Assembly: GCA_964016885.1 (NCBI GenBank)
Contig: OZ024748.1
Span: forward strand, 24,242,001-24,306,000
Direction of reading: 5' to 3'
Length of the DNA: 64,000 nucleotides
Origin: Eledone cirrhosa
Lineage: Eukaryota
Made by a program: the position numbers and the translations under genes. Below are positions 5,808 through 48,042 of this stretch, piece after piece; within the stretch, counting starts at the first letter, position 1; every line of letters starts with the position of its first letter. The notes below the pieces were generated by a model. The model worked only from the letters and a program-made list of their open reading frames with translations. It searched no databases and was not told where the DNA came from.

Positions 5808-5927
5808 TGAGTTCAAATCCCGCCGAGGTTAACTTTGCCTTTCATCCTTACGGGGTCGATAAAATAAAGTACCAGTAATGCACTGGGTATTTGCTGGCCT
5901 TGTGCTTAAAAGTAGAAACAATTATTA
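5808..5927 (+). mobile_element. SINE family 1, 5'-truncated
   Basis: Starts at the B-box; same body and tail. Confidence 0.85.
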
Positions 5928-6180: not shown

Positions 6181-6212
<32 letters not shown>

Positions 6213-6429
6213 TATTTCTTTATTTACCATAAAGGCATAAGAAGAAGGGACAAATACAAAGGGGGAGTTTACATAAAACCGAGTAAAAAGGGTATAAAAT
6301 GAAAATAATCGAAAACAACCTCAAAAGGGAGGGGACGTGATGGGGGTTGCACACACCCCCGAAAAAGTGTGCAATCCTTTTCCCGGGGAGCACATGGAGA
6401 AGGTGCTCCCTTCTCCTTCACTTCTTTAC

Positions 6430-9400
6430 CTACAGGATGGTATACAGAGAAGGCCCATTTACATGAGCCATTCTCGCCCCTATAACCCACCTTTCATAAA
6501 ACTGCCTGTAGCCAAGCACCTCTCTCTCCATTCTTATCCTTCTTCCGAAGTGATATCGGAAGAAGTAGACCAGACTATGGCCAGAGAGGAAGTTGCCTGA
6601 CCTCAGACCTTTCAATCGTGTCCACCAAACAACCTCTTTCAACATGGCTATTACGCACAGAAAAACCGCCTTTGCTTCCTTTGTGAAGAGGGGAGGCGGC
6701 TTGATTGTCATCACGGACTCGGCGGTCAATCGAATCGGCGCCACCCGCGACAGCAGTCGTTCGGCGTAGCCCCACAGATCAGCCACGCCCGGACATTGCA
6801 CCAATGCGTGCGCAACGGTTTCTTCGTGACGCACGCATCTAGGGCAAATCTTTTTCGAGGGATCCCTGCCCGGGCGCCCGTGTCTGTAGAGCCTTTCTCG
6901 AACGGGTAGAGCCCCCCGGTAGCACTGCCAGGCTAATGACTTCTGGAAGTTGTCCATTGGTCCTGGGCCGAAAGTCCTACCGAACAGGCTGGCCAGCTCG
7001 TCCTCTTCCATGTCCAGCGACTCTCCAAGGGTGTCATCGCCCCTGCTAGCCACCAGCCCTCTATAGAATGACGAGGTGGATTCTCCACCGATGGCCAGGT
7101 CCGCTTGCCAGAGAGCCCTGAGCGCCTGGGCACACTCAGTGTGCCAGTCTCCCAGTTTTCCGGATCTTTGCTTGACCCAGGACTGCAGCTCGGTGAGCGA
7201 GACGAGTCTCGGAAAGGCTCGTTTCACGAACGGAGCCCACACCGGTTGACCAGTGAGGAATACATGTAGGTGCCGTAGCCTTAATGCGTGCCTACGCATC
7301 ATCAACCACGGCATCCCCAGCCCTCCTTTCGAAGGTTGTTGGCAGCAGATGGATCTTCTCACCATAGGAGGGCGCTTCTTCCAAAGAAATTGAAAGAGCA
7401 TGCGTTCCATGGTGGTGAGTGTTTCCTTAGGGCAAGGCACGACAGTCAGGCGGTAGTAGGTGACGGACGCTATGTAAATGTTCGCCACCTCCGCCCGACC
7501 TTTTATGGACAGCTTACACTTGGCCCGTTTCTGGGTTAGTGCAAACACCTTGTTCGTAACCTCACCCCAGTTCTTTTCCACCTGGAGGTCCGGTCCAAAC
7601 CAGACCCCAAGCACCTTCACCGGGCCCCCCGTCCAGTGTCCGACGACACCGTCGGGAGGCATCGGTCTGCCTCTCCACGTTCCGAGTTGCAGCTCGATGG
7701 ATTTTTCCCGGTTCAGTTTCGCTCCTGACAACCTTTCGTATTCCTCCAGTAAGGTACCGATCGCCTCGATCTCCGAGTCGGTCGATACCATTACTGTTAC
7801 GTCATCGGCGTAGGCCGACACCGCTTTGCTCAATTCCAGGGGGATACCCTGCAACAACTCCAACTTCCTCAGTAAAGGCTCGAGAGTCAATACGTACAGA
7901 AGGGAGGAGAGAGGGCAATCCTGTCGAATGGATCGTGTGATTTCGAACGGCTTCGAAAGGTAGCCGTTCACCTTGATCCTAGAACAGATGAGGTTGCTAT
8001 GTAAGGCAGTGATCCAGCCTCTGAAAACAGGACCGAACCCAGCCGCCGCTAGCACCGCATCCAGGTAACCATGGTCGACCCTATCGATCGCCTTAGACTG
8101 ATCCAAGTTGATCAGGGCCCCACCGAAGCCGGGTTTGTTGCCAACCCTCTCTATGATGTATCGCATGAGGTGGAGGTTGTCGCGAATGGACCTGGATAGG
8201 ATAGCACATGTCTGCGCATCTCCCACCAGGCCACCCACGACAAGCGCCAACCTCTTTGCTAACACCTTGGCCAAAATCTTTAACTCTGTGTTTAGCAGGG
8301 TTATGGGCCGAAAATTATTTATACTATCCCCCTTGTTCTCGTCCTTCCTCACCAGCGAGACTACGTCCTTGGCTACAGAACAAACAATTCTCCCGTTCTG
8401 TTGCCAATTGCAGTAGACTGCTTCGAGGAGTTCGGAGAAGACCGGCATTGCTAAATAAAGTTCGTAACGTATACCATCGAGACCTGGAGATTTGCGTCTG
8501 CTGCATTGGCTCAGCGCATCCCCGATCTCATCAGCCGAGATTGGTCCTTCGCAGGACTCTGCCTCTTTGCTCGAGAGACGCGGCAGGCCGTCGAGGTATG
8601 GACCGAAATCCACGTCCCCGTCCGGACCTTCGCCTCCCCCGAACTATCGGGCAAAGTGCCTTTGAAAGGCCTCGCACATCTGCTTAGGCTCCCGGATCTG
8701 CCGTCCATCCTCGTCTTGCAAAGACCGGATGGTGGATCGATTTCCACTCTTAGCTTCTGTCACGCGGGCTCAGCCAACGGCTTTGGCCCCCTCATTACCT
8801 AGAGCACGTATTTTACTTCGAATGACGCAGCCTTCGTGCTTTGCATCGAAAAACTGGCTCAAGGCCGTCCTCGATGCCAGCATTCTGGCCACATCTTCGC
8901 TCTTGATTGCCTCTTCTAATTTACCTGTTAATTCTTTCTCGTTCCTATTCCTATCGGCGGCTAACATCTTGCTATAACTTATTGATTCTGTTCTAATCTC
9001 TCTTTTGAGAGATGCCCACCATTGGTTGTTGACGATTGCACCCGTCAACCTCTCCTTAACTAATCTGCTAATCTGGTTTCTGTAAGTCTCTTTTGCTGGT
9101 AAAGACAAATTAAGTTTCCAGTAACCGGGACCCTGTCTATGTGTTTTCTCGAGATTGACTACGCAGGTCACTAATTTGTGATCTGTATAGCCAACCGTGA
9201 GCATTTCTGGACAGCTTAATATGTCTCTATCCTTACTTCTAACTAAGAATCTATCTAAGTACGATCTAGATTGACCACTGTGGTTTCTCCATGTCCAGGT
9301 AGGCACAGTTGGAAAATCTAGTCGATATCTATCGACCAAGTTAAAACGGTCGAGTAACCCCTTGAGGCTGTTACACGCCCCTCTATTAGGACATGCTCCT

Positions 9401-9858
9401 GCATAGTCCCAACGTGCATCTAGGATGTCATTCCAATCCCCCGCTAGAAGCAAGGAACGCGACGTTCCCAGAAAAGTCTCCAGACGCTGGAAGAAGTCGG
9501 GTCGTTCAGCTCCGAAAGGGGAGTAGACGGCGACAAGTCTCAAGGCCGCACCTTCACTACTGCCAACGTCTAGCACCAACAAACGACCCTCCGGGTCCGA
9601 GTGAACAACCTGTACGGCGAGACCCAGGTGTTTTTCCAGCAGTACGACAACCCCACCCCCACCTCCAGGTTGACAGAGAGATGCATGCACCTCAAAGTCA
9701 TCGAAGGTAGGGGCCAGCTGCCGCACGACGCTGATTCGAGTCTTACAGATAACCATTACATTTATACCACGTGACCTGAGGTCATTTAGAAGCTTTGCTT
9801 GCTTCCAAGTTGAGCCCAGGCCACGTGCATTCAAACACCCTACTCTTAACACATCCAT
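6430..9858 (-). pseudogene. ORF2 (APE endonuclease-reverse transcriptase) of copy A, inactivated
   Basis: LNARGL/GDWN/SYLDRF/TDH endonuclease motifs, YADD, CPRC..H..C. In-frame stops at ~8770 (TGG>TGA) and ~8645 (TTG>TAG); ICKTR, KAIDRV and RQDCP replace ICETR, KAFDRV and RQGCP of copy B. Confidence 0.92.
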
Positions 9859-9891
9859 GTGGGCGGCAAAGCCAAAGGAGAGTGTAGAGAC

Positions 9892-11796
9892 CTACCTTTC
9901 TGCTTCCCGGGGTTCAGGTCGCACGACTTCCATGGGGTCGGGGGTGTTGGGTGAAGGGGTGTCTTGTGGTGGTGTGGGGTCGTCAGTGTGTGGTGGGGTG
10001 GGGGTGTTTGGAGTTGTGTTGGGGAGGGGAAGGAGAGGGGGAAAGCTTTTTAGTAGGACGCGGTTTATGGGTTTGACAGAGGGTGGTCCTACGTCCTCCT
10101 TAAAATCCTTTTTTAGTTTTTGGTAAAGGTTCATTGGGATCTTTATTAATTTTAAATGTAGGTAGTTTTCTGAAGAAACAAAGTTTACCCCTTCGGTTTG
10201 TACCGAAGGGTTATTGTTTATGAGTTCATTTAATTTATTATTGTTTCTGTTGATGTAAGTATAGTGTAATGTCTTTTTTTCGGATGGTGTGAGTGTTTCG
10301 AAGAGGGGAGGGGCAGGTTTGGTTTTGTTTGTTGCTGGAGGGGTGTTTTGTGTTTTGTTGGATTGTGTTGACATTTGGGTAGGGGTTGTTTGGCCTTGTG
10401 TGTTTTGCACATGTTTTCTTTTTTTCCTTTTAATCTGTCTGAAGGACTCCGTTTCTTCCTCCGAATTCGTTGGGTTATCTTCAGTGTTGGAGGGAAGAGG
10501 TATGTTTGCTGGTAATGTTTCCGTGGTTTTCTTTGTGGGGGAGATGGATGTCACTATGTTAGACTGTGTTGTGTGTTGTGGCTGCGGTAGTTGTGTTGTT
10601 TTATTGAGTGAGGGGTTGGGTGGGACTGTGTTTTGTTTTTGGGTAATGTGTTGTGTCTGTTTGTGTTGTGGTGGTGGTGTAGTTTTACTGAGAGACGGGT
10701 TGGGTGGGACTGAGTTTTGTTGTTTGTTTATCTTCTGTGGTGGTGGTGGAGCTGCTGTTGGTAGCAGGGTTTTCTTCTTGTTGAGTTGGGGACAAGCCGC
10801 CTTCAGGTGCCCTCTGCCTGCACAGATATGACAGGACGGCCTTCTCCCCTCCACGCTAATGTTTATATACCCGCGGCCCTCTAATAGGATTCTGTCGGGT
10901 ATTTGGGCAATGCGTTCAGGCTTCATTTGCACTACAAGTTCTATACCTGTTCCACTGAACGCATTGCCTGTGGTTTTCCCAATGGAAATCACGTTGTCAT
11001 TCACTGTATCGATGAAGCCAGCTATGAGCCAGCAGTAGTCCACATCTGGCATCATCGCATCTAGCCATATGCGCTGATTTCTTTTACACATATAAGATGG
11101 ATAAAAGGTAAAATTTGTCGAACGAATCGGCGACAAAGCATATTTTTTTGCCGCTGATTCGTTCTTCATAATAATCGCTAGGCTTCCATACAGTCTGTCT
11201 CTTCTTATGAAAGTGGTTTCATTAAGTACTTCTGTAAGTACTGCTTTAATTTCTGCTTGTGTTGGTTGTTGAGGTTTTTTAGAGATGTTGTTGATGGTGC
11301 GGAAAACGACCGTCCGACTTTCAATATCTTTGGTGAGTTCTTGAGGCATTTTTACCGATAAGGTACCATTTTCCCCTTGAGTTATGTATTGTTTGGCGTT
11401 TTTAATTCTTTGTGCTACATCTGAAATATTTTCAGGTATATATGTTAAAGATTTCTTTGTTGTTTGTGCAAATGAAATATTATTGGTGTTGACTTTGTCG
11501 TCTGCTTTGCTTTCTGTTACGATGTTGTTTTCAAATGTTATTTTTGTGTTTGTTGTGTCTTTGTTTGTGGTATTAATATTGTCATGCAATTTTTTCAAAT
11601 TTTTTTTGTTGTTGGAATCAATGTCCAGATTTGTGTTTTCGTCATTTTTCTTCGCACATTCGTCTGTTTTTCTTTCATTTTTTCTTTCCTTCTCTATGAC
11701 GTTAGTTGGGAAGGAATGGGGGGGGACTAAAGCGTGCGAGCTTACAACTCTTACCTCTGTCCCACCACCACTATTTTCGTTAGCTTCGTTTAACAT
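9892..11796 (-). CDS. LINE ORF1 protein (634 aa, nucleic-acid binding, gag-like zinc knuckle), uninterrupted
   Basis: Open ORF upstream of ORF2; CHICAGRGHLKAAC = CX2CX4HX4C; basic KRKKRK patch; homologous to ORF1 remnants in copies B-D. Confidence 0.9.
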   Translation of the reverse strand: MLNEANENSGGGTEVRVVSSHALVPPHSFPTNVIEKERKNERKTDECAKKNDENTNLDIDSNNKKNLKKLHDNINTTNKDTTNTKITFENNIVTESKADDKVNTNNISFAQTTKKSLTYIPENISDVAQRIKNAKQYITQGENGTLSVKMPQELTKDIESRTVVFRTINNISKKPQQPTQAEIKAVLTEVLNETTFIRRDRLYGSLAIIMKNESAAKKYALSPIRSTNFTFYPSYMCKRNQRIWLDAMMPDVDYCWLIAGFIDTVNDNVISIGKTTGNAFSGTGIELVVQMKPERIAQIPDRILLEGRGYINISVEGRRPSCHICAGRGHLKAACPQLNKKKTLLPTAAPPPPQKINKQQNSVPPNPSLSKTTPPPQHKQTQHITQKQNTVPPNPSLNKTTQLPQPQHTTQSNIVTSISPTKKTTETLPANIPLPSNTEDNPTNSEEETESFRQIKRKKRKHVQNTQGQTTPTQMSTQSNKTQNTPPATNKTKPAPPLFETLTPSEKKTLHYTYINRNNNKLNELINNNPSVQTEGVNFVSSENYLHLKLIKIPMNLYQKLKKDFKEDVGPPSVKPINRVLLKSFPPLLPLPNTTPNTPTPPHTDDPTPPQDTPSPNTPDPMEVVRPEPREAER

Positions 11797-12048
11797 TTCT
11801 GTCAGACGATTGAAATTTTATGCCACAAAATTTTTAAAAACAGGTTTTTCACCCCTGGGAGGGGCGAAGATGAGCTGACCCACCGCCTGAGAGTTCAGAC
11901 GGGGGGTCAAGCTACACAATAGTATCAAAATTAAAATTGAACTTACAAAATTTCCGCAATAAATTGGAACAAAACTTCTGCGCGAAGTGAATTACATCTA
12001 CGCTGTAGAACAGACGACAGCTAGATTAATAGATAGATAGATAGATAT

Positions 12049-12126
<78 letters not shown>

Positions 12127-12340
12127 TTCTTTATTTACCATAAAGGCATAAAAAGAAGGGACAAATACAAAGGGGGAGTTTACATACAATCGAGTAAAAA
12201 GGGTATAACATGAAAATAAGCGAAAATAACCTCAAAAGGGAGCGGACGTGATGGGGGTTGCACACACCCCCGAAAAAGTGTGCAATCCTTTGCCCGGGGA
12301 GCACATAGAGAATGTGCTCCCTTCTCCTTTACTTCTTTAC

Positions 12341-15300
12341 CTACAGGATGGTATACAGAGAAGGCCCATTTACACGAGCCATTCTCGCCACTATCACCCA
12401 CCTTTCATAAAACTGCCTGTGGCCAAGCACCTCTCTCTCCATTCTTATCTTTCTTCCGAAGTGATATCGGAAGAAGTAGACCAGACTATGGCCAGAGAGG
12501 AAGTTGCCTGACCTCAGACCTTTCAATCGTGTCCACCAAACAACCTCTTTCAACATGGCTATTACGCACAGAAAAACCGCCTTTGCTTCCTTTGTGAAGA
12601 GGGGAGTCGGTTTGATTGTCATCACTAACTCGGCGGTCAATTGAATCGGCGCCACCCGCGACAGCAGTCGTTCGGCGTAGCCCCACAGATCAGCCACGCC
12701 CGGACATTGCACCAATGCGTGCGCAACGGTTTCTTCGTGACGCACGCATCTAGGGCAAATCTATTTTGAGGGATCCCTGCCCGGGCGCCCGTGTCTGTAG
12801 AGCCTCTCTCGAACGGGTAGAGCCCCTCGGTAGCACTGCCAGGCCAGTGACTTCTGGAAGTTGTCCATTGGTTCTGGGCCGAAAGTCCTACCGAACAGGC
12901 TGGCCAGTTCGTCTTCTTCCATGTCCAGCGACTCTCCAAGGGTGTCATCGCCCCTGCTATCCACCAGCCCTCTATAGAATGATGAGGTGGATTCTCCACC
13001 GATGGCCTGGCCCGCTTGCCAGAGAGCCCTGAGCGCCTGAGCACACTCAGTGTGCCAGTCTCCCAGTTTTCCGGATCTTTGCTTGACCCAGGACTGTAGC
13101 TCGGTGAGCGAGACGAGTCTCGGAAAGGCTCGTTTCACGAACGGAGCCCACAGCGGTTGACCAGTGAGGAATACCTGTAGGTGCCGTAGCCTTAATGCAT
13201 GCCTACGCATCATCAACCACGGCATCCCCAGCCCTCCTTTCGAAGGTTGTTGGCAGCAGATGGATCTTCTCACCATAGGAGGGCGCTTCTTCCAAAGAAA
13301 TTGGAAGAGCATGCGTTCCATGGTGGTGAGTGTTTCCTTAGGGCAAGGCACGACAGTCAGGCGGTAGTAAGTGAGGGACGCTATGTAAATGTTCGCCACC
13401 TCCGCCCGGCCTTTTAGGGACAGCTTACACTTGGCCCATTTCTGGGTTAGTGCAAACACCTTGTTCGTAACCTCGTTCCAGTTCTTTTCCACCTGGAGGT
13501 CCGGTCCAAACCAGACCCCAAGCAACTTTACCGGGCCCCCCGTCCAGTGTCCGACGACACCGTCGGGAGGCATCGGTCTGCCTCTCCACGTTCCGAGTTG
13601 CAGCTCGATGGATTTTTCCCGGTTCAGTTTCGCTCCTGACAACCTTTCGTAATCCTCCAGTAAGATACCGATCGCCTCGATCTCCGAGTCGGTCGATACC
13701 ATTACTGTTACGTCATCGGCGTAGGCCGACACCGCTTTGCTCAATCCTGGTTCCAGGGGGATACCCTGCAACAACTCCAACTTCCTCAGTAAAGGCTCGA
13801 GAGTCAATACGTACAGAAGGGAGGAGAGAGGGCACCCCTGTCGAATGGATCGTGTGATTTCGAACGGCTTCGAAAGGTAGCCGTTCACCTTGATCCTAGA
13901 ACAGATGTGGTTGCTATGTAAGGCAGTGATCCAGCCTCTGAAAACAGGACCGAACCCAACCGCCGCTAGCACCGCATCCAGGTAACCATGGTCGACCCTA
14001 TCGAAGGCCTTAGACTGATCCAAGTTGATCAGGGCCCCACCGAAGCCGGGTTTGTTGCCAACCCTCTCTATGATGTATCGCATGAGGTGGAGGTTATCGT
14101 GAATGGACCTGGATGGGATAGCACATGTCTGTGCATCTCCCACCAGGCCACCCACGACAAGCGCCAACCTCTTTGCTAACACCTTGGCCAAAATCTTTAA
14201 CTCTGTGTTTAGCAGGGTTATGGGCCAAAAATTATTTATACTATCTCCCTTGTTCTCGTCCTTCCTCACCAGCGTGACTACGACCTTGGCTACAGAACAA
14301 GGAATTCTCCCGTTCTGCTGCCAATTGCAGTAGACCGCTTCGAGGAGTTCGGAGAAGAAGACCGGCATTGCTAAATAAAGTTCGTAACGTATACCATCGA
14401 GACCTGGAGATTTTCGTCTGCTGCATTGGCTCAGCGCATCTCCGATCTCATCAGCTGAGATTGGTCCCTCGCAGGACTCTGCCTCTTCGCTCGAGAGACG
14501 CGGCAAGCCGTCGAGGTATGGACCGAAATCCACGCCCCCGCCCGGACCCTCGCCTCCCCCGAACAATCGGGCAAAGTGCCTTTGAAAGGCCTCGCACATC
14601 TGCTTAGGCTCCCGGATCACCCGTCCATCTTCGTCTTGCAACGACCGGATGGTGGATCGATTTCCACTCTTAGCTTCTGTCACGCGGGCCCAGCCAACGG
14701 CTTTGGCCCCCTCATTACCTAGAGCACGTATTTTACTTCGAATGACGCAGCCTTCGTGCTTTGCATCGAAAGACTGGTTCAAGACCGTCCTCGATGCCAG
14801 CACTCTGGCCACATCTTCGCTCTTGATTGCCTCTTCTAATTTACCTGTTAATTCTTTCTCGTTTCTATTCCTATCGGCAGCTAACATCTTGCTATAACTT
14901 ATTGATTCTGTTCTAATCTCTCTTTTGAGAGATGCCCACCATCGGTTGTTGACGTTTGCACCCGTCAACCTCTCCTTAACTAATCTGCTAATCCGGTTTC
15001 TGTAAGTCTCTTTTGCCGGTAAAGACAAATTAAGTTTCCAGTAACCGGGAACCTGTTTATGTGTTTTCTCGAGATTGACTACGCAGGTCACTAATTTGTG
15101 ATCCGTGTAGCCAACCGTGCGCATTTCTGGACAGCTTAATATGTCCCTATCCTTACTTCTAACTAAGAATCTATCTAAGTACGATCTAGATTGACCACTG
15201 TGGTTTCTCCAAGTCCAGGTAGGCACAGTTGGAAAATCTAGTCGATATCTATCGATCAAGTTAAAACGGTCGAGTAACCCCTTGAGGCTGTTACACCCCC

Positions 15301-15778
15301 CTCTATTAGGACATGCTCCTGCATAGTCCCAACGTGCATCTAGGATGTCATTCCAATCCCCCGCTAGAAGCAGGGAACGCGACGTTCCCAGAAAAGTCTC
15401 CAAACGCTGGAAGAAGTCGGGCCGTTCAGCTCCGAAAGGGGAGTAGACGGCGACCAGTCTCAAGGCCGCACCTTCACTACTGCCAACGTCTAGCACCAAC
15501 AAACGACCCTCCGGGTCCGAGTGCACAACCTGTACGGCAAGACCCAGGTGTTTTTGCAGCAGTACGACAACCCCACCCCCACCTCCAGGTTGACAGAGAG
15601 ATGCATGCACCTCAAAGTCATCGAAGGTAGGGGCCAGCTGCCGCACGACGCTGATTCGAGTCTCACAGATAACCATTACATTTATACCACATGACCTGAG
15701 GTCATTTAGAAGCTTTGCTTGCTTCCAAGTTGAGCCCAGGCCACGTGCATTCAAACATCCTACTCTTAACACATCCAT
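12341..15778 (-). pseudogene. ORF2 EN-RT of copy B; 1005 aa open, then a single AAG>TAG stop (12761) just before the C-terminal zinc finger
   Basis: ORF track 12761..15778 and in-frame 12341..12745; EN and RT motifs intact (ICETR, GDWN, TDH, KAFDRV, RQGCPLS, YADD). Confidence 0.92.
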
Positions 15779-15811
15779 GTGGGCGGCAGAGCCAAAGGAG
15801 AGTGTAGAGAC

Positions 15812-16711
15812 CTACCTTTCCGCTTCCCGGGGTTCGGGTTGCACGACTTCCATGGGGTCGGGGGTGTTGGGTGAAGGGGTGTCTTGTGGTGGTGTAGGGT
15901 CGTCAGTGTGTGGTGGGGTAGGGGTGTTTGGAGTTGTTTTGGGGAGGGGAAGGGAAGGGGGAAAGCTTTTTAGTAGGACGCGGTTTATGGGTTTGACAGA
16001 GGGTGGTCCTACGTCCTCCTTAAAATCCTTTTTTAGTTTTTGGTAGAGGTTCATTGGGATCTTTATTAATTTTAAATGTAGGTAGTTTTCTGAAGAAACA
16101 AAGTTTACACCTTCGGTTTGTACCGAAGGATTATTGTATATGAGTTCATTTAATTTATTATTATTTCTGTTGATGTAAGTATAGTGTAATAGGTTTTTTT
16201 GAAGTGTTGTTGATGGTGCGGAACACGACCGTTCTACTTTCAATGTCTTTGGTGAGTTCTTGAGGCATTTTAACCGATAAAATACCATTCTCTCCTTCAC
16301 TTATGTATTGTTTGGCGTCTGTGATTCTTCGTGCCACATCTGAAATATTTTCGGGTATATATGTCAAAGATTTCTTTGTTTTTTGTGCAAATGAAATCTT
16401 GACTCTGTCGTCTGCTTTGCTTTCTGTTATGGTGTTATTTTCAAATGTTATTTTTGTGTTTGTTGTGTCTTTGTTTGTGGTGTTAGTATTGTCATGCAAT
16501 TTTTCAAATTTTTTTTTTTTCCGTTGTTGCAATCTATGTCCAGATTTGTGTTTTCGTCATTTTTCTCCGCAGATTCGTCTGTTTTTATTTTAATTTTTCC
16601 TTCCTTCTCTATGACGTTAGTTGGGAAGGAAGGGGGGGGGGACTAAAGCGTCCGAGCTTACAACTCTTACCGCTGTCCCCCCACCACTATTTTCGTTCGC
16701 TTCGTTTAACA
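15812..16711 (-). pseudogene. ORF1 remnant of copy B (internally deleted, frameshifted)
   Basis: Fragments MLNEANENSGGG.., ..SRTVVFRTINN.. and ..PEPREAER match copy A ORF1. Confidence 0.85.
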
Positions 16712-16965
16712 TTTCTGTCAGACGATTAAAATTTTTTTTTTTTTTTTTTTTGCCACAAAATTTTAAGAAAACAGGTTTTTCACCTCTAGGAGGGGTAAAG
16801 ATGAGCTGACCCACCGTCTGACAGTTCAGACGGGGGGTCGAGCTACACAATAGTATCAAAATTAAATTTGAACTCACAAAATTTCCGCAATAAATTTGAA
16901 CAAAACTTCTGCGCGAAGTGAATTACATCTACGCTGTAGAACTGACGACAGCTAGATTAATAGAT

Positions 16966-19900
16966 GTTTCTTTTATTTGCCACCAGGGCATCAAAAGTGG
17001 GACAAGTACAATGGGGGGAGTTTACACAAAAAGGTGTCCTCAATAAGGAGGAGGCAATAACAAAATATAAAAATAAAATAAAATATAACAAAAAATAATA
17101 TTTATAACAAAATCCTCAATAGAGAGGAGGCGCCTTGGGGGCTCGCACACACCCCCGAAAAAAGTGTGCAACCCTTTTCCTCAGGAGCACAGAGAGGGGG
17201 TGCTCCCTCGTAACTTCCTCTTTTCCACCTACAGGCTTATGTAAAGAGAAGGCCCATTCACACGGGCCATTCTCGCCACTTTCACCCACCTTTCATAAAA
17301 ACGACTGGGGTGGAGCACCTCTCTCTCCATCCTGATCCTTCTTCCGAAATGATATCGGAAGAAACGGACCAGTTGTTGGCCAGAGAGAAAGGTGCCTGAC
17401 CTCAGTCCTTTCAGACGCGTCCACCATACAACCTCTTTCGCCATGGCTATTACGCACAGAAACACCGCCTCTGCTTCATCTTTGAAGGGGGGAGGCGGCT
17501 TGATCATTACAATAGACTCGGTGGTCAACCGGATCGGTCCCACCCTTGACAGCAGTTGTTCGACATAGCCCCACAGATCGGCTACGCCCGAGCAGTGTAC
17601 CAATGCGTGTGCAACGGTTTCCTCGTCGCACACGCATCTGGGACAGATCTTTTTGGCGGGGTCCCTACCCGGGCGCCCGTGTCTGTAGAGCCTTTCTCGA
17701 ATGGGTAAAGCCCCTCGGTAGCACTGCCAGGCCAGGGACTTCTGGAAGTTGTCCATAGGTCCCGGGCTGAATGTCCTACCGAACAGGCTGGCCAGTTCGT
17801 CCTCCTCCATGTCTAGGGCTTCTCCGAGGGCGTCGTCGCACCTGCTGCGTACCAGCCCTCTATAGAATGTTGCGGTGGAGTCTCCACTGATAACCGGGTC
17901 CGCCTGCCAGAGGGCGGTGAGCGCCTGGGCACACTCAGTGTGCCAGGCGCCCAGTTTTCTCGGTCTTTTCTTGACCCAGGATTGCAGCTCGGTGAGTGAG
18001 ACGAGTCTGGGAAAGGTTCGTCTCACAAACAAGACCCACACCGGTTGACCGGTGAGGAATACGTAGAGGTGCCGTAGCCTTAATGCGTGTTTACGCATCA
18101 TTAGCCACGGCATCCCCAGCCCTCCTTTCGAAGGGTGTTGACGGCAGATGGATCTCCTCACCATAGGAGCCCGCCTCTTCCAAAGGAATTGGAAGAGCGC
18201 GCGCTCCATCTTGGTGAGGGTTTCCCTTGGGCAGGGCACTACGGTCAGGCGGTAGTAAATGACGGACGCTATGTAGGTGTTCGCCACCTCCGCCCGACCT
18301 TTCAGGGATAGTTTGCAACTGGCCCACTTCTGGGTCAGTGCAAACACCCTGTTCGTAACCTCCGCCCAGTTTTTCTCCACCTGGAGGTCCGGTTCGAACC
18401 AGACCCCGAGCAACTTCACCGGGCCCTCCGTCCAGCGTCCGACGACGCCATCGGAGGGCATCGGTCTGCCCCTCCACGTGCCGAGTTGCAAACCGATCGA
18501 CTTGTCCCGGTTCAGCTTAGCCCCTGTGAACCTTTCGTACTCCTCCAGTAAGGTGCCGACCGCCTCGATTTCGGAGGCCGTCGACACCATTACTGTCACG
18601 TCATCGGCGTAGGCCGACACCGCTTTCCGCAATCCCGGTTCCAAAGGGATGCCCTGCAACAACTCCAACTTCCGAAGTAGTGGCTCGAGAGTCAACACAT
18701 ACAGAAGGGAGGAGAGAGGGCACCCTTGTCGGATGGACCGCGCGATTTTGAACGGCTCCGAGAGGTAGCCGTTCACCTTGACCCTAGAGCAGATGCGGCT
18801 GCTGTGCATAGCAGTGATCCAGCCCCTGAAAACGGGTCCGAAGCCTGCCGCCGCTAGCACCGCATCCAGGTAAGCATGGTCGACCCTATCGAACGCCTTA
18901 GATTGATTCAAGTTGATCAGAGCCCCACCAAAGCCGGGTTCGTTCCCAACCCTCTCTATGATGTATCGCATGAGGTGGAGGTCGTCATGGATGGACCTGG
19001 ACGGGATGGCGCATGTCTGCGCATCTCCCACCAGGTTGCCCACGACAAGCGCCAACCTCTTTGCTAGCACCTTGGCCAAAATCTGTAACTCTGTATTTAG
19101 CAGAGTTATGGGCCTGAAGTTACTTATTTCGTCCCCCTTGTTCTCGTCCTTCCTCACTAGCGTGACTACGCCCTTGGTCACAATACAGGGAATTCTCCCG
19201 TTCTGTTGCCAGTTGCAGTAGACCGCATCGAGGAGATCGGGGAACAAGTCCGGCATAGCTAGATATAATTCGTAAGGAAGACCATCGAGACCCGGGGATT
19301 TGCGTTTGCTGCATTGGCTCAGCACGTCCTCTATCTCAGCGGCCGAAATCGGCTCCTCGCAGGACTTCGCCTCCCTGTCCGAGAGGCGCGGCAGGCCGTC
19401 GAGGTATGGACCGAAGTCCACGTTCCCAACCGGCTCCCCGCCCCTCCCGAACAGTCGGGCAAAGTGCCTTTGAAAGGCCTCACACATCTGCTTAGGCTCA
19501 AGAATCGCCCGTCCATCCAGGTCTCGCAAAGACCGGATGGTGGATTTAGTTCCACTGTTGGCCTCTGTCACGCGGGCCCAGCTAACAGCTTTGGTCCCCT
19601 CGTTCCCTAGAGCACGTATTTTACTTCGGACAACGCAGCCTTCGTGCTTCGCGTCGAAAAACTGGCTCAAAGCCGTTCTCGACGCTAGCACTCTGGCCAC
19701 GTCGCTGCTTCTAATTGCCTCTTCTACTCTATCTATTAGCTCCCTTTCCTTCCTATTCCTATCCGCAGCTAGAACCTTACAAAATTCTATCGAGACTACT
19801 CTAATCTCTCTCTTTAGAGATACCCACCACCTGCTGTTGACGATCGCTCCAGTCAACCGTTCCTTAACTAACGTACTAATCCGATCCCTGTAGGCTCTAC

Positions 19901-21341
19901 TTGCCGGCAAGGACAAGTTGAGCTTCCAGTAACCGGGGCCCTGTCTATGCGTTCTATCAAGGTTGACCATGCAGGTCACCAACTTGTGGTCTGAATAGCC
20001 AACCATGAGCATTTCTGGACAACTTAAAAAGTCCCTGTCCTTATTTCTAACTAAAAATCTATCTAGGTACGACCTAGATGATCCGCTGCGATTTGACCAA
20101 GACCAGGTTGGCACCGTCGGAAAATCTAGTCGAAATCTATCGGCCAGCTCAAATCGGCCGAGTAACCCCTTGAGGCTGTTGCACCCCTCTCTATCGGGAC
20201 ATGCCCCTGCATAGTCCCAACGTGCATCCATGATACCATTCCAATCCCCCACTAAAAGCAGGGAACGGGACGTCCCTAGAAAAGACTCCAGATGCTGGAA
20301 AAAGTCGGGCCGCTCTGTCCCAAAAGGGGCATATGCGGCTACCAGCCTAAAGGCTCCATCTTCACCACTGCCAAGGTCCAGCACCACCAGTCAACCCCCT
20401 GGGTCCAAGTGAACTATCTGTGTTGCAAGGCCCATATGTTTTTGCAGCAGCACGACAACCCCACCCCCACCTCCGGGCTGACAGAGAGATGCGTGCATCT
20501 CAAAGTCGTCAAAGGTGGGGGCTAGTTGCCGCATGCTGATGATCCGGGCCTCGCAGATAACCATCACATTTATAGATTGTGACCTGAGGTCATTTAGAAG
20601 CATTGCTTGCTTCCAAGATGAGCCCAGGCCACGCGCATTTAGACACCCTACTCTTAGCACAGCCATGTTGGTGGTAAGGAGAAAAGGCACTTACCTCTCT
20701 GCGTCCCGGGAAACGGCCCGCTCAATTTCCATGCTGGTTGGGGATGGGTTGTTGGGTGGGGTGGTCGTTTGTGGAAGTGAAGGGGCATCGGTGTGTTGTG
20801 GGGTTGGGTTGTTTGTGATTGAGTGGGTGTCTGGGTGGGGTGGGGGGTGAAATGTTTTAGGAGGACGCGGTTGATTGGTTTGGCGCAGGGGGGGCCCACG
20901 TCCTCCGTGAAATTTATTTTCAGTGTTTTGTACAAGTTCATTGGGACTTTTATCATTTTCAAATGAGGTAGTCCCACAGCAGTTATAAAGTTTGGCCCTT
21001 CAGTTTGGACCGAAGGGTTTGCTGAAATTGTTTTCCGTAATTCTTTGTTGTCTGTGTTCATGTATGTATATTGTAAGGTCTTTTTTTGTGTAGCAATTAG
21101 TGTTGTGTGACAGGGAGGGGTGGTTTGTGTGTAGTTTGTGTTCTCTTGGGGGGGGGGAGGTTAAAGTTAACATGTGTGTCTGTGGTGCGTCTCCTCTTCT
21201 TTCATTTTACTTGTTGGAAGGGATCTTTTTCGTCTTGCGACGAAAGGGGTTCGTCTTCCTTGTTGGGTGGGAGGGGTATGTTTTCTGGTAGTGTTTGCGG
21301 TGCGTGTGTTTTTGTATTTGTTTTGGGTGGGGAGGGATTGG
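16966..21341 (-). mobile_element. Tx1/L1-clade retrotransposon, copy C (second subfamily, 5'-truncated within ORF1)
   Basis: Divergent from A/B but colinear; 3' end fused to B's 5' end through only TAGAT; 5' truncation abuts (GATA)n 21342-21382. Confidence 0.93.
17229..20666 (-). pseudogene. ORF2 EN-RT of copy C, 1146 codons with one in-frame TGA (20391, likely CGA>TGA)
   Basis: ORFs 20391..20690 and 17229..20387 are in the same frame; motifs ICEAR, GDWN, SDH, RQGCPLS, YADD, CPRC..H..C. Confidence 0.92.
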
Positions 21342-21383
<42 letters not shown>

Positions 21384-21384
21384 C

Positions 21385-24300
21385 TTTCTATTTATTTCTA
21401 TTTATTTGCCACCAGGGCATCAAAGATTGGGACAAATACAAGAGGGAGAGTTTACATACATTTCAAGGGACGTGTAAAAATATATAACAAATCAAATTCA
21501 AAAATCGAAGTCCTCAATAGGGAGGGGCGTTGACGTGGGTCGCACCCCCCACCCCCGAAAAAAGGTGCAACCCTCCTCCTCAGGAGCACAAAGAGCGGGT
21601 GCTCCCTTCCTCTCCTCCTTCCTCTCCTCTCTCACCTACAGGCTGATATAGAGAGAAGGCCCATTCACTCGGACCATTCTCACCACTTTCACCCACCATT
21701 CATAAAACTTGCTGGGGTAGAGCACCTCTCTCTCTCCATTCTGATCCTTCTTCTAAAATGGTACTTGAAAAAAAGGACCAGTTGTTGGCCGGAGAGAAAA
21801 GTGTCTGACCTCAGCCCTTTCAACCTCGTCCACCATACAACCTCTTTCGTCATAACTATCACACAGAGGAAAACCTCCTCTCTTTCGTTTTTAAAGGGGG
21901 GAGGCGGTTTGATCGTGACAACGTACTCGGTGGTCAACCGGATTGGTCCCACTCGCGACAGTAGTCGTTCCACATAGCCCCACAGGTCAGCAACGCCCGG
22001 GCAGTGTACGAATGCGTGCGCGACGGTTTCCTCGTCACGCACGCATCTCGGGCAGATCTTCTTCGAGGGGTCCCTACCCTCGCGCCCGTGTCTGTAGAGC
22101 TTGTCCCGAACGGGTAGAACTCCCCGGTAGCACTGCCAAGCCAGGGACATTTGGAAGTTGTCTATCGGTCCCGGGCCAAACGTCCTTCCGAACAGACTGG
22201 CTAGCTCGTCTTCCTCCATGCCCAGAGCCTCTCCGAGAGCATCGTCGCACTTGATGCGCACCACCCTCTATAGAATGTTGAGGTTGAGTCTCCACTGATT
22301 GCCGGATCCGCTTGCCAGAGGGCCGTGAGCGCCTGGGCACATTCAATGTGCCAGTCGCCCACTTTTCTCGGTCTTTGCTTGACCCAGGATTGCAGCTCGG
22401 TGAGTGAGACAAGTCTCGGAAAGGCTCGCCTCACAAAAGGGGCCTCAACCGGCTGACCAGTGAAGAATACCTGGAGGTGCCATGGCCTTAATGCGTGTCT
22501 ACGCATCGTCAGCCACAGCATCCCCAGCCCTCCGTTCGAAGGGTGTTGACCCCTTACCAAAGGAGCCCGCTTCTTCCAAAGGAATCGGAAGAGCGTGCGC
22601 TCCATTTTGGCGAGCGTTTTCGCAGGGCAAGGCACGACGGTCAAGCGGTAGTAGATGACGGACGCTATATAAGTGTTCGCCACCTCCGCTCGACCTTTCA
22701 GGGATAGTTTGCACTCAGCCCGCTTCTGGGCGAGTGAAAACACCCTGCCCGTTACCTCATCCCAGTTTTTCTCCACCTTGAGGTCCGGTCTGAACCAGAC
22801 CCCGAGCAGCTTCACCGGTCCCTCCGTCCAGCGTCCGACGACGCCGTCGGAGGACATCGGTTTGCCTCTCCACTTTCCGAGTTGCAAACCGACGGACTTG
22901 TCCCGATTCAGCTTGGCTCCTGTAAACCTTTCGCATTCCTCCAGTAAGGTGCCGATCTGCCTGATTTGCGACGCGTACGACACCATTACTGTCACGTCAT
23001 CGGCGTAGGCCGACACCGCTTTCCGCAATCCCGGTTCCAAGAGGATTCCCTGCAACAGCTCCAACTTCCGCAGTAGTGGCTCGAGAGCCAGCACATACAG
23101 AAGGGAGGAGAATGGGCATCCCTGTCGGATGGATCGCGCGATTTGGAACGGCTCCGAGAGGTAGCTGTTCACCTTGACCTTCGAGCAGGTGTTGCTGCTG
23201 TGCATTACAGCAATCCAGCCCCTGAAAACGGGTCCGAAGTCTGCCGCCGCGAGCACCGCATCCAGGTACCGATGGTCGACTCTATCGAACGCCTTAGATT
23301 GATCCAAGTTGATCAGGGCCCCACCAAAGCCGGGTTCGTTCCCTACCCTCTCTACGATGTATCGCATCTCTGCGCTTCTCCCACCAGGTTCCCGACGACA
23401 AGCGCCAACCTCTTCCCTAACACCTTGGCCAAAATCTTTAACTCTGTGTTTAGCAGAGTTATGGGCCTGAAGTTATCTATGTCATCTCCCTTGTTCTCGT
23501 CCTTCCTCACCAGCATGACTACGCCCTTGGTCACAGAACTGGGAATTCTCCCGTTCTGTTGCCAGTTGCAGTAGACCGCCTCGAGGAGATCGGGGAACAA
23601 GTCCGGCATCGCTACATAAAGTTCGTATGGTAGACCATTGAGACCGGGAGATTTGCGTTTGCCGCATAGGCTCAGCACTTCCCCTATTTCAGCGGCTGAA
23701 ATCGGCCTTTCGCAGGACTTTGCCTCCCCGTCCGAGAGCTGCGGCAGACCGTCGGGGTATGGACCGAAATCCATGGCCTCACCCGGCCCGCCGCCCCTCC
23801 CGAACAGTCGTACAAAGCGCCGTTGAAAGGCCGCGCACATCCGCTCAGGTTCAAGGATCACGCGTCCATCCTGGTCCTTCAAAGACCGAATCGTGGACTT
23901 GTTTCCACTTTTTGCCTCTGTCACTCGGGCCCAGCTAACAGCTTTGGCTTCCTCGTTACCCAGAGCACGTATTTTACTCCTGACAACACAGCCCTCGTGC
24001 TTCGCGCCAAAGAACTGGTCTAGGGCCGTTCTTGACGCCAACACGCCGGCCACGTTTCCCCTCCTAATCGCCTTTTCTACTCTATCAATTCCCTTTCAGT
24101 TCTATTCCTATCTGATGCTAATTCCTGACTAAAACCTATCGATTCTATTCTAATTTCTCTCTTGAGAGAGCCCCACCACCTGCTGTAGACAATTGCCCCC
24201 GTCAACCGCTGCTTAACTAGATAATTAATCCGCTTACTGTAAGCTTTGTTTGTCGGTAAGGACAAGTTTAGCTTCCAGTAACCGGGTCCTTGTCTATGGG

Positions 24301-27090
24301 TTCTATCAAGGTTGACCACTCCGGTCACTAGCTTGTGATCCGAATAGTCAACCATGAATATTCGTGGACAACTTAATATGTCCCTATCCTTATTTCTAAC
24401 TAGGAACCTATCTAGGTACGACCTAGATTTCTGCTGCGATTAGTCCACGTCCACAGTGGCACAGTCGGAAAATTTAGTCGTTATCTATCGTCCAGATCAA
24501 ATCGGCCGATTAACCGTTTGAGGCTGTTACAGCCTCCTCTATCGGGACATGCCCCTACATAGTCCCAACGTGCATCCAGGATACCATTCCAGTTCCCCAC
24601 TAAAAGCAAGGAGCGAGACGTTCCCAGAAAAGTCTCTAGGCGTTGGAAGAAGTCCGGTCGCGGTGTCCCAGATGGGGCATACGCTCCCACCAGCCTGAAG
24701 GCTCCACCTTCACTACTGCCTACGTCTAGAACCACCAGTCGACCCTCCGGGTCCAGGTGTACCTTCCGTGTTGCGAGGCCCAGGTGTTTTCGCAGCAGAA
24801 CGACCACCCCGCCCACACCCCCAGGCTGACAGAGAGATGCATAGATCTCAAAGTCGTCGAAGATGGGGGCCAGTTGGTGCTCGCTGCTGATCCTGGACTC
24901 GCAAATAGCTATCACATCCATTCTGTGCGACCTGAGGTCATTTAAGAGTTTGCCCTGCTTCCAGGACATCCCCAGGCTGCGCACATTTAAACATCCAACT
25001 CTTATAACAGCCATGGTGAAGAGTTTAGAGTGGAGAAAAAGGAAAAGACACCTACCTGTCCTCCTCCTGGGGATCAGGCTGCACAATTTCCATGGAGGTG
25101 TCGTCGGGGTTGTTTGGTGGGGTGGTGGTTTGGGATGTGGTGGGGGACATCAGTGTGTGGTGAGTGGGGTGTTTGGTGGGGGGGATGGGTGTCTGGGGTG
25201 GTGGTGGGGAAACATTTCAAGAGGACGCGGTTGCTATGTCTAGTACAGTGTTCCCCATGTCCTCGGGAAAGTTATGCTTGAGCATTGCGTAGGTGTCCCT
25301 TGGGACCCTAATCATTTTAAATGCGGTTTAGTCGCCGCGTTGGTTAACATTTTCCCTTCGGTTTCCACCGAAGGGTCTTTGTCTATTGTTTGCACAAGTG
25401 TTTTGTTGTTTGTGTTGATGTATGTATACTGTTTTTGTTGTTTGGTTTTTGTTTGTTGTTATTGTGTGTGTTTGCGTTTTGTAGTATGTGTTATGTTTTC
25501 GGGAGGGGTGGGTATTTTTGTTTGTGATGTTTGTTCTGTTTGTGCTGGTGGTTGTGTATTTGTTGCATTTTTGTTAATGTGGTGCCTTCTTTTCTTTCTT
25601 TTTACAGGTTGAAAGGGTTCTCCCTCGTCGTCACTGGGTGACGTTGATAAGGGGTCCTCGTCCGTGTTGTTGGGGAGGGGTATATTTTGGGGTTTTGTTG
25701 TGGTTGCTTTTGTATTTGTTTTAGGTGGAGAGGGGATGGGTGGGACAGTGTCTTGTGTTGTTATTTTTTCGTGTTGTTGTGGTGGTGGTGGTGGTGGTGG
25801 CTGTGTTGTTGTGTGTGGGGTGGGCAGAAGCTTCTTTTTTGGGGGGAGGGGGCATTTAAAAGGGGACAGGAAGCCCTCAGGTGACCACTTCTTGAACAGT
25901 GGTAGCATGAAGGCCGCCTGCCCTCAACAGAAATGTTTATGAAGGCAACTCCATCCAGAGACACACGCTGCGGTATTCTTGCTATCCGTTCTGGTCACAT
26001 CTGGACCAGAACTTCAAGGTTATTGCCGCCGAATACGCCCCCGGTGGATTCGCCTATCGAAAGGATTGTGTCTTCATCTTCTAAGAATCCCGTTAGCACT
26101 CACCAAATGCTCGCATTTGGCCTGATGCCCGAGATTCTTATCTTTTGAGTTCTTTTCCCCAAATATGTGGGGGAAAAGGTGTATGCTTTGGATACAATTG
26201 GCGACACAGAATATTTCCGTGCCGCCAATTCATCTTGCATTAAAACAGATATGCTTCCATACAGTTTCCCTTTCTGTATGAAAACGATATCCTTCCAGGC
26301 ACTACTTAGGACCAGCTCAATTTCGCTTTGGGACAATTGAACCGGTTTCCTAGTCGTGTTCGAAACTGTCCTAAAAATTACAGTCCTGAAGACTGTGTCC
26401 CTTCTAATTTCTTCGAGGGAAGTAATTGTAAATTCCCCACTTCCCCGAAATTTACACAATTCCTTGCTTCTTTCAGCAATTTCTTGGCATTCGAGATGTC
26501 CAGTGCCTTGTATGTCTGCGTTTCTCGGACTGCCTGTGCGAAGGAGACTGCAGCTGTGGGTCCGTTTTCTTTCGTGTTGTTATCATTGTTGTTGTTGTTA
26601 TTCGTGTTGGCTTGCTTTTTTCCTTTGTTGGTGTTGTCATTATTGCTGTTGTTGGTTGTGTTGTTATTGTCATTGTTGCTGTTGTTGGTTGTGTTGTTAT
26701 TGTCATTGTATTCTTGTTTGTGTAATTGTTACTTTTGGGGTTTTCACCCATTTCCACAATGTTTTCTTTTGATTCCGTGGTATCTTTTGCGGGAGTGAGG
26801 ATGGAAGGCTTACAGCGTTGTGCTGCTACCTTCTCTCTATCACTTTCCTTGGGGGGCGTGGCATGCGTCGTATTAATGGCGTCCATTGTCACTAAACGAC
26901 TTTTTATCGACAACTTATAACTATTAAATTTCGCCCTAAAATGGGGCGAAATTTATTTTACCCAACGTCTGCAGGCCCAGGCGAAGGGTTAAACACAACA
27001 AATAACAAATTACTTAAACAGACCTACCGCTTCTCGTAATAAATTCCGACAAAATGCAGGAGCCAAACAAAAACACGTCTATCTTCTCCG
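21385..27090 (-). mobile_element. Tx1/L1-clade retrotransposon, copy D (third subfamily, near full length, most decayed)
   Basis: Frameshifted ORF1 (~26886-25052, CYHCSRSGHLRASC knuckle) and ORF2 (~25014-21636, YADD); (GATA)n at both ends (21342-21382, 27091-27108). Confidence 0.92.
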
Positions 27091-32949: not shown

Positions 32950-33157
32950 AATAATAATAATAATTGTTTCTACTTTAGGCACAAGGCCAGCAATTACCCA
33001 GTACATTACTGGTACTTTATTTTATCGACCCCGTAAGGAATAATGGTTTCTGATTTTAGGCACAAGGTCGATCAAATCGACCCCAGTGCGTTACTGGTAC
33101 TTTATTTTATCGACCTCGTAAGGATGAGAGGCAAAGCTCGGCGGGATTTGAACTCTG
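32950..33157 (-). mobile_element. Two nested or truncated SINE family 1 fragments
   Basis: Two copies of TTACTGGTACTTTATTTTATCGACC. Confidence 0.8.
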
Positions 33158-34350: not shown

Positions 34351-34356
34351 TGGTTT

Positions 34357-36110
34357 CTATGTCATTGCCTCCCCATAACACTGTCTGTAACACTGTCTGT
34401 AACACTGTCTATATCATTGTCTCCCCATAACACTGTCTATAGCACTGTCTGTAACACTGTCTATGTCATTGTCTCCCCAAAACACTGTCTATAGCACTGT
34501 CTGTAACACTGTCTATGTCATTGTCTCTCCATAACACTGTCTGTAGCACTGTCTATGTCATTGTCTCCCCATAACACTGTCTGTAGCACTGTCTGTAACA
34601 CTGTCTATATCATTGTCTCCCCATAACACTGTCTGTAGCACTGTCTGTAACACTGTCTATGTCATTATCTCCCCATAACACTGTCTATAGCACTGTCTGT
34701 AACACTGTCTATGTCATTGTCTCCCCATAACACTGTCTATAGCACTGTCTGTAACACTGTCTATATCATTGTCTCCCCATAACACTGTCTATAGCACTGT
34801 CTGTAACACTGTCTATGTCATTGTCTCCCCATAACACTGTCTATAGCACTGTCTGTAACACTGTCTATGTCATCGTCTCCCCATAACACTGTCAATAGCA
34901 CTGTCTGTAACACTGTCTATATCATTGTCTCCCCATAACACTGTCTATAGCACTGTCTGTAACACTGTCTATGTCATTGTCTCCCCATAACACTGTCTGT
35001 AACACTGTCTATATCATTGTCTCCCCATAACACTGTCTATAGCACTGTCTGTAACACTGTCTATGTCATTGTCTCTCCATAACACTGTCTGTAGCACTGT
35101 CTATGTCATTGTCTCCCCATAACACTGTCTGTAGCACTGTCTGTAACACTGTCTATATCATTGTCTCCCCATAACACTGTCTGTAGCACTGTCTGTAACA
35201 CTGTCTATGTTATTGTCTCCCCATAACACTGTCTGTAGCACTGTCTGTAACACTGTCTATATCATTGTCTCCCCATAACACTGTCTGTAGCACTGTCTGT
35301 AACACTGTCTATGTCATTGTCTCCCCATAACACTGTCTGTAGCACTGTCTGTAACACTGTCTATATCATTGTCTCCCCATAACACTGTCTGTAGCACTGT
35401 CTGTAACACTGTCTATACCATTGTCTCCCCATAACACTGTCTATAGCACTGTCTGTAACACTGTCTATATCATTGTCTCCCCATAACACTGTCTATAGCA
35501 CTGTCTGTAATACTGTCTATGTCATTGTCTCCCCATAACACTGTCTATAGCACTGTCTGTAACACTGCCTATGTCATTGTCTCCCCATAACACTGTCTGT
35601 AGCACTGTCTGTAACACTGTCTATATCATTGTCTCCCCATAACACTGTCTGTAGCACTGTCTGTAACACTGTCTATGTTATTGTCTCCCCATAACACTGT
35701 CTGTAGCACTGTCTGTAACACTGTCTATATCATTGTCTCCCCATAACACTGTCTGTAGCACTGTCTGTAACACTGTCTATGTCATTGTCTCCCCATAACA
35801 CTGTCTGTAGCACTGTCTGTAACACTGTCTATATCATTGTCTCCCCATAACACTGTCTGTAGCACTGTCTGTAACACTGTCTATACCATTGTCTCCCCAT
35901 AACACTGTCTATAGCACTGTCTGTAACACTGTCTATGTCATTGTCTTTCCATAACACTGTCTATAGCACTGTCTGTAACCCTGTCTATGTCATTGTCTCC
36001 CCATAACACTGTCTATAGCACTGTCTGTAACACTGTCTATATCATTGTCTCCCCATAACACTGTCTGTAACACTGTCTATGTCATTGTCTCCCCATAACA
36101 CTGTCGGTAA
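34357..36110. repeat. Minisatellite, 52-bp unit made of 12-bp subunits
   Basis: GTCATTGTCTCCCCAT-AACACTGTCTAT-AGCACTGTCTGT-AACACTGTCTAT repeated. Confidence 0.95.
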
Positions 36111-42900: not shown

Positions 42901-43910
42901 TGGTGGTGGGGTTGGTAGTGGTGGTGGTGGTATTGTTGTACTGGAGGTAGTGTTGGCGGTGGTGGTGGTGGTGGTGGTTGTAGTGGTGGCGGGGTTGGTA
43001 GTGGTGGTGGTGGTATTGTTGTACTGGAGGTAGTGTTGGCGGTGGTGGTGGTGGTAGTGGTTGTAGTGGTGGTGGGGTTGGTAGTGGTTGTAGTGGTGGC
43101 GGGGTTAGTAGTGGTGGTGGTGGTGGTAGTGGTTGTAGTGGTGGCGGGGTTGGTAGTGGTGGTGGTGGTAGTGTTGTAGTGGAGGTAGTGTTGGCGGTGG
43201 TGGTGGTGGTGGTGGTTGTAGTGGTGGCGGGGTTGGTAGTGGTGGTGGTGGTAGTGTTGTAGTCGAGGTAGTGTTGGCGGTGGTGGTGGTGGTGGTGGTT
43301 GTAGTGGTGGTGGGGTTGGTAGTGGTGGTGATGGTAGTGTTGTAGTGGAGGTAGTGTTGGCGGTGGTGGTGGTGGTGGTGGTTGTAGTGGTGGCGGGGTT
43401 GGTAGTGGTGGTGGTGGTAGTGTTGTAGTGGAGGTAGTGTTGGCGGTGGTGGTGGTGGTGGTGGTTGTAGTGGTGGCGGGGTTGGTAGTGGTGGTGGTGG
43501 TAGTGTTGTAGTCGAGGTAGTGTTGGCGGTGGTGGTGGTGGTGGTGGTTGTAGTGGTGGCGGGGTTGGTAGTGGTGGTAGTGTTGTAGTCGAGGTAGTGT
43601 TGGCGGTGGTGGTGGTGGTAGTGGTTGTAGTGGTGGCGGGGTTGGTAGTGGTGGTGGTGGTAGTGTTGTAGTCGAGGTAGTGTTGGCGGTGGTGGTGGTG
43701 GTGGTGGTTGTAGTGGTGGTGGGGTTGGTAGTGGCGGTGGTGGTGGTGGTGGTGGTGGTAGTCTTGTAGTGGAGGTAGTGTTGGCGGTGGTGTTAGTGGT
43801 TCGGGTGGTAGCGGGGTTGGTAGTGGTGGTGGTGGTAATGTTGTAGTTTAGGTAGTGTTAGCAGTGGTGGTGGTGGTGGTGGTTGTAGTGGTGGTGGTGG
43901 TGGTGTAGTT
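39923..43910. repeat. (GGT)n-derived region including an ~83-bp minisatellite (~41070-43860)
   Basis: GTAGTGGAGGTAGTGTTGGCGG..GCGGGGTTGGTAGT..GTT; period 83 at 41744 and 41827. Confidence 0.93.
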
Positions 43911-47990: not shown

Positions 47991-48042
47991 ATAAGGTCCG
48001 TTTCAACAAGTATGTGCTTCCATCATTTCTCGGTATTGTTCT

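Follow-up and report, generated by a model that had tools for sequence, protein, structure and literature searches.

A conserved splice donor on the ORF1 stop of an octopod LINE family and the possible splicing out of the whole of ORF2

In bicistronic long interspersed nuclear elements (LINEs), the protein of the first open reading frame (ORF1p) is in excess over that of the second (ORF2p), which is usually explained by inefficient reinitiation, and in the half-L1 elements HAL1 an ORF1 joined to a 3' end without ORF2 exists as genomic families. Among elements with long terminal repeats (LTRs), the copia-type EVD of Arabidopsis and copia of Drosophila, the latter with an intron of about 3 kb, make a spliced gag RNA, according to the cited part of the work on them (PMC5580714). 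Human L1 RNA also carries splice sites, and spliced L1 RNAs have been copied back into the genome as SpIREs (PMC5860796) and SpORF2 (PMC2896524); as the cited sections describe it, the donors lie in the 5' untranslated region (UTR) and the products are dead ends that lose the promoter or ORF1 (PMC5860796, PMC2896524). Here we describe a 64,000-nt stretch of Eledone cirrhosa DNA (contig OZ024748.1, positions 24,242,001 to 24,306,000 of the forward strand; "the window"), which contains a head-to-tail array of four minus-strand LINE copies, A to D, with a splice donor on the ORF1 stop and a candidate acceptor on the ORF2 stop.

With EVD and copia, these elements share a donor close to where the structural gene ends, a subgenomic RNA from which the structural protein is made (here predicted) and, possibly, a U1 that also blocks early termination, as far as the cited text covers those elements (PMC5580714). 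Those are, however, LTR elements with a gag-pol polyprotein, and the EVD intron is described there as short and linked to early termination (PMC5580714), whereas the present element is a bicistronic LINE whose predicted intron is all of ORF2. As in human L1, a LINE RNA appears to have splice sites and spliced RNAs seem to have been copied back, but here the ORF1 stop carries the donor, ORF2 is what would be lost, and one putative fossil product founded a subfamily of >2,400 copies. Kibi and Koshi of the Tx1 clade likewise have an endonuclease-reverse transcriptase (RT) ORF2 and insert into microsatellites; the target here is instead (ATCT)n/(AT)n, and the cited portion of that paper mentions no splice site for them (PMC4494074). 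Thirteen recently active L1-Tx1 families have been reported from O. vulgaris, in a text that leaves splicing unmentioned in its cited part (PMC13282606). The literature that we searched, mostly by listings and including few subscription papers or Repbase reports, yielded no LINE whose ORF1 stop carries a donor or whose ORF2 is spanned by an intron; control by splicing, known from LTR elements, was not found for LINEs in it either.

On the minus strand, the donors read at 9895 (A), 15815 (B), 20694 (C) and 25055 (D) and the AGs of the ORF2 stops at 6430, 12341, 17229 and 21636, all eight exactly where an earlier note on this DNA had placed them. That note had proposed that the entire ORF2 is an intron of about 3.4 kb; the spans from donor to acceptor are 3466, 3475, 3466 and 3420 nt in A, B, C and D. 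Joining the two sites regains the Arg-stop in A, B and D, as had been claimed, while the "short extension" foreseen for C turned out to be a tail of 42 residues, and of 79 in a further C copy. Ranked by a weight matrix based on vertebrate sites and not trained on the host, the donor is second of 279 GT sites in A (9890..9898, cut between 9896 and 9895) and first in B (15810..15818, of 318), C (20689..20697, of 298) and D (25050..25058, of 277).

The same holds across the family. The sample comprised 13 subfamilies, each from a locus that has both ends (A/B, C, C', D, G, H, I, F, F', E, E', J and L). All 13 agree with the 5' splice consensus in 8-9 of the 9 donor positions, with +4 altered in A/B and D only; the donor ranks 1-2 among the 255-318 GT sites (about 280 per element) in 17 of 17 rows. 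The sequences flanking the donor on both sides diverge between subfamilies, and at ORF2 four-fold sites the main branches are only 49-68% identical, with a tree length of 3.0 (13 rows, two of them F, with E' left out). ORF1 ends in G-K-stop in F, F', J and L, where the donor is placed one base into a Gly codon, and in R-stop in the remaining subfamilies, where the donor, two bases into an Arg codon, includes the stop. Placed on the ORF2 tree, this implies two separate phase shifts of the donor. The donor positions that the protein leaves free are all invariant (+1, +5 and +6 in the R-stop group, +2 and +5 in the G-K-stop group), compared with 31% and 37% invariant four-fold sites in the two groups; the product for the five positions, ~0.004, is only rough, because ORF1 ends recombine and some donor sites are two-fold. 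As a control we took 80 distant L1/Tx1-like relatives, 27 of which had an ORF2 start that could be recognised. An ORF1 was present in 23 of the 27, and none of these 23 has a site scoring at least 8 on the ORF1 stop, and a single 8 occurs in a spacer. The earlier observation of a near-consensus donor kept while the spacer diverges thus extends to 13 subfamilies and two phases, and does not extend to the 23 controls. The donor is more than chance. We regard it as a real, selected, lineage-specific donor with what look like fossil signs of use, and judged by the sequences its place where the structural gene ends is conserved, as copia-like subgenomic splicing requires. A GT loss at one locus (L162) is copy-specific, as the full donor hexamer is present in 9 of 15 related loci. 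In J and L (L285, L299) there is a second perfect donor ~310 nt past the first, inside the endonuclease region.

Named relatives of ORF1 come from Octopus species and Argonauta. P0100, an ORF1 relative of 603 aa that is complete on an ENA contig of 2,209 nt, ends in G-K, and P0109, the Argonauta homologue, in G-K-S, the residues that the phase-1 donor encodes; other ORF1 relatives lack such an end, and word-based searches for ORF1 relatives returned nothing beyond P0100. These two proteins from elsewhere suggest that the donor may be old in octopods. The length of the P0100 contig is about what an ORF1-only RNA would be predicted to have, but the P0100 tail fits the unspliced form.

In two chimeric subfamilies the join coincides with the donor cut. 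One of them, E, with 2,459 matches, is 89-96% J2-like over the 1,800 nt upstream of the join and 89-97% E'-like on the ORF2 side; the J2 donor cut is followed by the sequence after a CAG in the E' ORF1 end, and only AG is shared. Subfamily N, found at two loci (L149 and L330), combines a D-related ORF1 with a G-type remainder, and its extra 23 nt stop at the position equivalent to the D/I donor cut, where G continues from after a CAG. The CAGs used lie 23 or ~43 nt ahead of the next element's donor. By our own estimate, the chance of two joins falling within 3 positions of ~60 is ~0.003. We infer that E and N may be fossil splice products, in which the read-through transcript of a tandem pair would have been spliced and then retrotransposed in cis. 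E fits such a SpIRE-type join with both parents known and N with an upstream parent that was not found and is inferred only. Template switching is an alternative, albeit one that would need the donor to be cut as well if it occurred onto a cut 5' exon. Taken with the conservation of the site, we consider it likely that the donor is used by the spliceosome.

What the donor would be spliced to is less certain. Tentatively, we favour the possibility that ORF2 is spliced out of some transcripts, from the donor on the ORF1 stop to an AG that coincides with the ORF2 stop or shortly precedes it, with a predicted ORF1-only mRNA as the product. U1 would bind the donor, a share of the RNA would be spliced to the end of ORF2 and give ORF1p only, and the remaining RNA would stay unspliced for ORF2 translation and copying. 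The ORF1-only product would raise ORF1p over ORF2p; the AG at the ORF2 end would be the usual partner of the donor, and as a weak acceptor it would leave sufficient unspliced RNA for transposition, while cis preference would keep the ORF2-less RNA out of the genome. With somewhat more doubt, we can imagine a copia-like two-RNA programme of this kind in which the same donor, working across head-to-tail arrays, also splices ORF1 onto the next ORF2 and so founds successful subfamilies.

In the window the candidate acceptors are the final TAG of the A ORF2 (6430, rank 9 of 263 AG sites), the ORF2 stop of B (12341..12343, rank 5 of 261), the ORF2 stop of C with an AG 7 nt upstream (17229..17238, ranks 10 and 26 of 265) and the ORF2 stop of D with a CAG 7 nt upstream (21636..21645, ranks 6 and 4 of 268). 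The extra AGs that the earlier note had reported in C and D are thus present, both at 7 nt rather than 7-9 nt, and since they are in the ORF2 frame, their use would make ORF1 end two codons later at the ORF2 stop; C' shares the in-frame AG of C. The ORF2-stop AG ranks 1-11 of ~260 in A/B, C, C', D, G and H and 5-16 in F and F'. An in-frame stop follows it within two codons, in the frame of the donor, in 8 of 13 subfamilies (4/4 phase-1, 4/9 phase-2), and this stop is shifted by one base in a branch where the donor phase changed.

A number of observations weigh against this pairing. The ORF2-stop AG ranks poorly in I (29), L (47) and J (68) and is lost in E and E', E being the largest subfamily, so that over the family the donor is kept in 13 of 13 and the AG is not; a single loss of the AG is not exceptional, with at most one change at 55 of 137 four-fold sites. 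The tract before the AG is encoded by Pro, Ser or Thr, and Leu codons, and over the last 8 codons of ORF2 the four-fold sites show no pyrimidine excess (36/75 vs 720/1543); the polypyrimidine tract is there because the ORF2 protein sequence dictates it. No clear branch point was seen, in agreement with the caveat of the earlier note. I, E and E' keep the post-ORF2 stop in a frame that their donor does not use, so only one of the two phase shifts is matched by the stop; in these three it may be a relic. The E and N joins both bypass the ORF2-stop AG, the CAG used in E' has a poor splice score (-8.7), and an E copy at L385 connects the donor cut with a point in ORF2 435 nt further downstream through a 3-nt microhomology and no AG, so that joins other than splice joins also land at the donor cut. 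These data do not place the acceptor above chance: of the proposed whole-ORF2 intron, the donor stands, with 13 subfamilies and two fossil joins behind it, and its pairing with the ORF2-stop AG is unproven.

Genomic copies lacking ORF2, which the earlier note expected as a trace of splicing, also speak against the pairing by their absence. Spliced ORF1-only copies numbered 0 among 77 donor-variant loci (A/B, C/C'/G, D, F and E; all read) and 0 among 7 acceptor-variant loci, compared with 860 exact unspliced A/B donors; the donor-variant patterns were exact, with any base but the usual one after the donor, and F', H, I, J and L lay outside their coverage. None of the 77 has ORF1 joined to the 3' end in the manner of HAL1, from which the present family differs in having no ORF1-only copy among the loci read. 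A pattern for spliced J copies gave 2,459 matches, and the 30 loci read were all subfamily E. This absence weighs only lightly, because cis preference, as the cited part of the SpIRE study presents it, predicts few such copies (PMC5860796). The predicted junction is absent from the 15 joints listed, with 289 others unlisted, for contigs of four runs (kind unknown) on B and C, and a 505-nt contig of one of these runs, X4, is continuous across the B acceptor; both count neither way. Run X4 peaks in depth over 16442-16749 and over the C 3' UTR (within 16442-17365, including the 5' part of the B ORF1), and these peaks are absent from three larger runs. An antisense promoter or a host transcript might lie behind them, but they are uninformative on splicing because the regions belong to different subfamilies and the depth of contigs is no guide to how parts of a gene compare.

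Other explanations account for part of these data. It is rather unlikely, but compatible with splicing of ORF2, that the donor acts chiefly as a landing pad for the U1 small nuclear ribonucleoprotein (snRNP) and is rarely spliced, keeping poly(A) signals of the A-rich ORF1 from causing cleavage of the nascent RNA, favouring full-length RNA and leaving the chimeras as rare accidents. A selected donor, an unselected acceptor and the missing spliced copies would all follow, a poly(A) hexamer lies within 500 nt upstream of the donor in 16 of 23 rows, and A/B is mostly full length (1,027 5' vs 1,325 3' candidates). The hexamers nevertheless do not exceed their frequency in shuffled sequence, they are missing from this 500-nt range in D, I, L and two of the three J copies, ORF2 has just 0-2, and the in-frame stops after the ORF2-stop AG are left unexplained. 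There are precedents in EVD (PMC5580714) and the major donors of HIV-1 or foamy virus (PMC12789967), as far as the cited sections go, and by analogy with EVD, which is described there as combining both roles (PMC5580714), the two may coexist here. A role of the donor in evading HUSH was dropped, as the cited part of that study describes protection as independent of splice sites (PMC8770142).

We think it improbable that the donor is spliced mainly to other acceptors, either inside ORF2 or at the cryptic CAG before the donor of the next tandem element. Both E and N use such a CAG, head-to-tail arrays are frequent, and an acceptor-like site in the RT region ~1,870 nt past the donor (in A near 8020), in the ORF2 frame, is top-ranked in 9 of 17 rows; yet this site falls within conserved RT codons, no copy spliced to an internal site occurs among the variants read (A/B covered), and rare exon shuffling is a poor reason for selection in every lineage. 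Slightly less improbable, though still quite doubtful, is a motif unrelated to splicing, an inherited Gly-Lys-stop or Arg-stop context for termination or ORF2 reinitiation whose likeness to a donor is incidental. The donor consensus includes a stop codon and a purine after the stop favours termination, and, the subfamilies being related, their agreement does not amount to independent evidence. Reinitiation is also how LINE ORF2 is made in SART1 and L1, according to the cited passages (PMC5972666). Against such a motif, the nucleotides survived two frame shifts with wobble positions fixed, two joins coincide with the cut site and follow a CAG, and the 23 controls lack the motif. A mini-intron from the donor to an AG in ORF2 codon 5, with 42-61 nt removed and ORF1 and ORF2 fused in frame, would suit the pyrimidine-rich spacer and the phases of A, E and F. 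At 42 nt it would be below usual intron sizes, and A/B, C/C'/G, D and E have no spacer-less copies, although an RNA that keeps ORF2 should be copied in cis; their absence largely refutes this explanation, which we consider very improbable.

None of the four window copies is intact. Copy A (6215..12028, minus strand, as are all features of the four copies) is a full-length LINE of subfamily A/B, which has ~1,000-1,300 genomic copies. Its ORF1 (9892..11796) is open, with 634 aa, a CCHC knuckle and a C-terminal Arg-stop, and had no match in a Pfam search; a pyrimidine-rich spacer from the donor to the ORF2 start (9859..9889) differs in length and sequence among subfamilies. ORF2 (6430..9858), with endonuclease, RT and zf-RVT domains, is interrupted by two stops, and the 3' UTR (6215..6429), with a poly(A) signal near 6224, passes into an (ATCT)n tract at 6184-6212. 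Copy B (12127..16960; subfamily A/B, ORF2 from 15778) lacks ~1 kb of ORF1 and has a copy-specific ORF2 stop at 12761, C (16967..21340; subfamily C, ORF2 from 20666) is 5'-truncated, and D (21383..27090; subfamily D, ORF2 from 25014) is decayed. The 3' ends of three of the four carry (ATCT)n tracts; the tract between B and A (12029..12126) and the (ATCT)n-like tract between D and C (21342-21382) are each target or tail. Elsewhere in the window are minisatellites of 52, 38 and 44 nt and a 4-kb (TGG)n-rich array (34356-36078, 46642-47991, 2288-2942 and 39923-43905), and a SINE-like short interspersed repeat common to 5820-5900 and 32959-33124.

In Pfam, ORF2 contains an N-terminal apurinic/apyrimidinic (AP) endonuclease (PF03372), an RT (PF00078) and a C-terminal zinc domain (PF13966), and its nearest relative among solved structures is human L1 ORF2p (E 5e-50). 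A separate ORF1 5' of ORF2, a 3' poly(A) signal and the lack of LTRs agree with the L1 group. Within it the elements are presumably of the Tx1 clade, a label taken from the earlier note; no named Tx1 reference came up among the relatives. At the 14 loci examined, all seven A/B 5' ends found adjoin an ATCT-like tract or the tail of another element, and 3' ends pass into ATCT-like tracts; there is a preference for microsatellite targets, as often in the Tx1 clade. Subfamilies inserting in each other's (ATCT)n tails form mixed head-to-tail arrays (L115, L117, L118, L160, L194, L322, L323). Genome-wide, A/B has ~1,027 candidates for the 5' part, ~1,175 for the middle and ~1,325 for the 3' part, so that ~78% of copies are seemingly near full length, which is unusual for an L1-type element; 29 copies have a minority 3' UTR variant. 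The other subfamilies add 17,581 further ORF2 ends, and the whole family has >18,000 3' ends in the genome.

ORF1 swapping is frequent in LINE evolution and poorly explained. The E and N chimeras suggest that splicing over tandem arrays may swap ORF1 between lineages, and the two-RNA programme, if true, would provide a mechanism for such swapping in LINEs. A selected donor on the ORF1 stop would point to a control of ORF1p versus ORF2p based on splicing or U1, and the same donor may also be a host switch on a family of this size.

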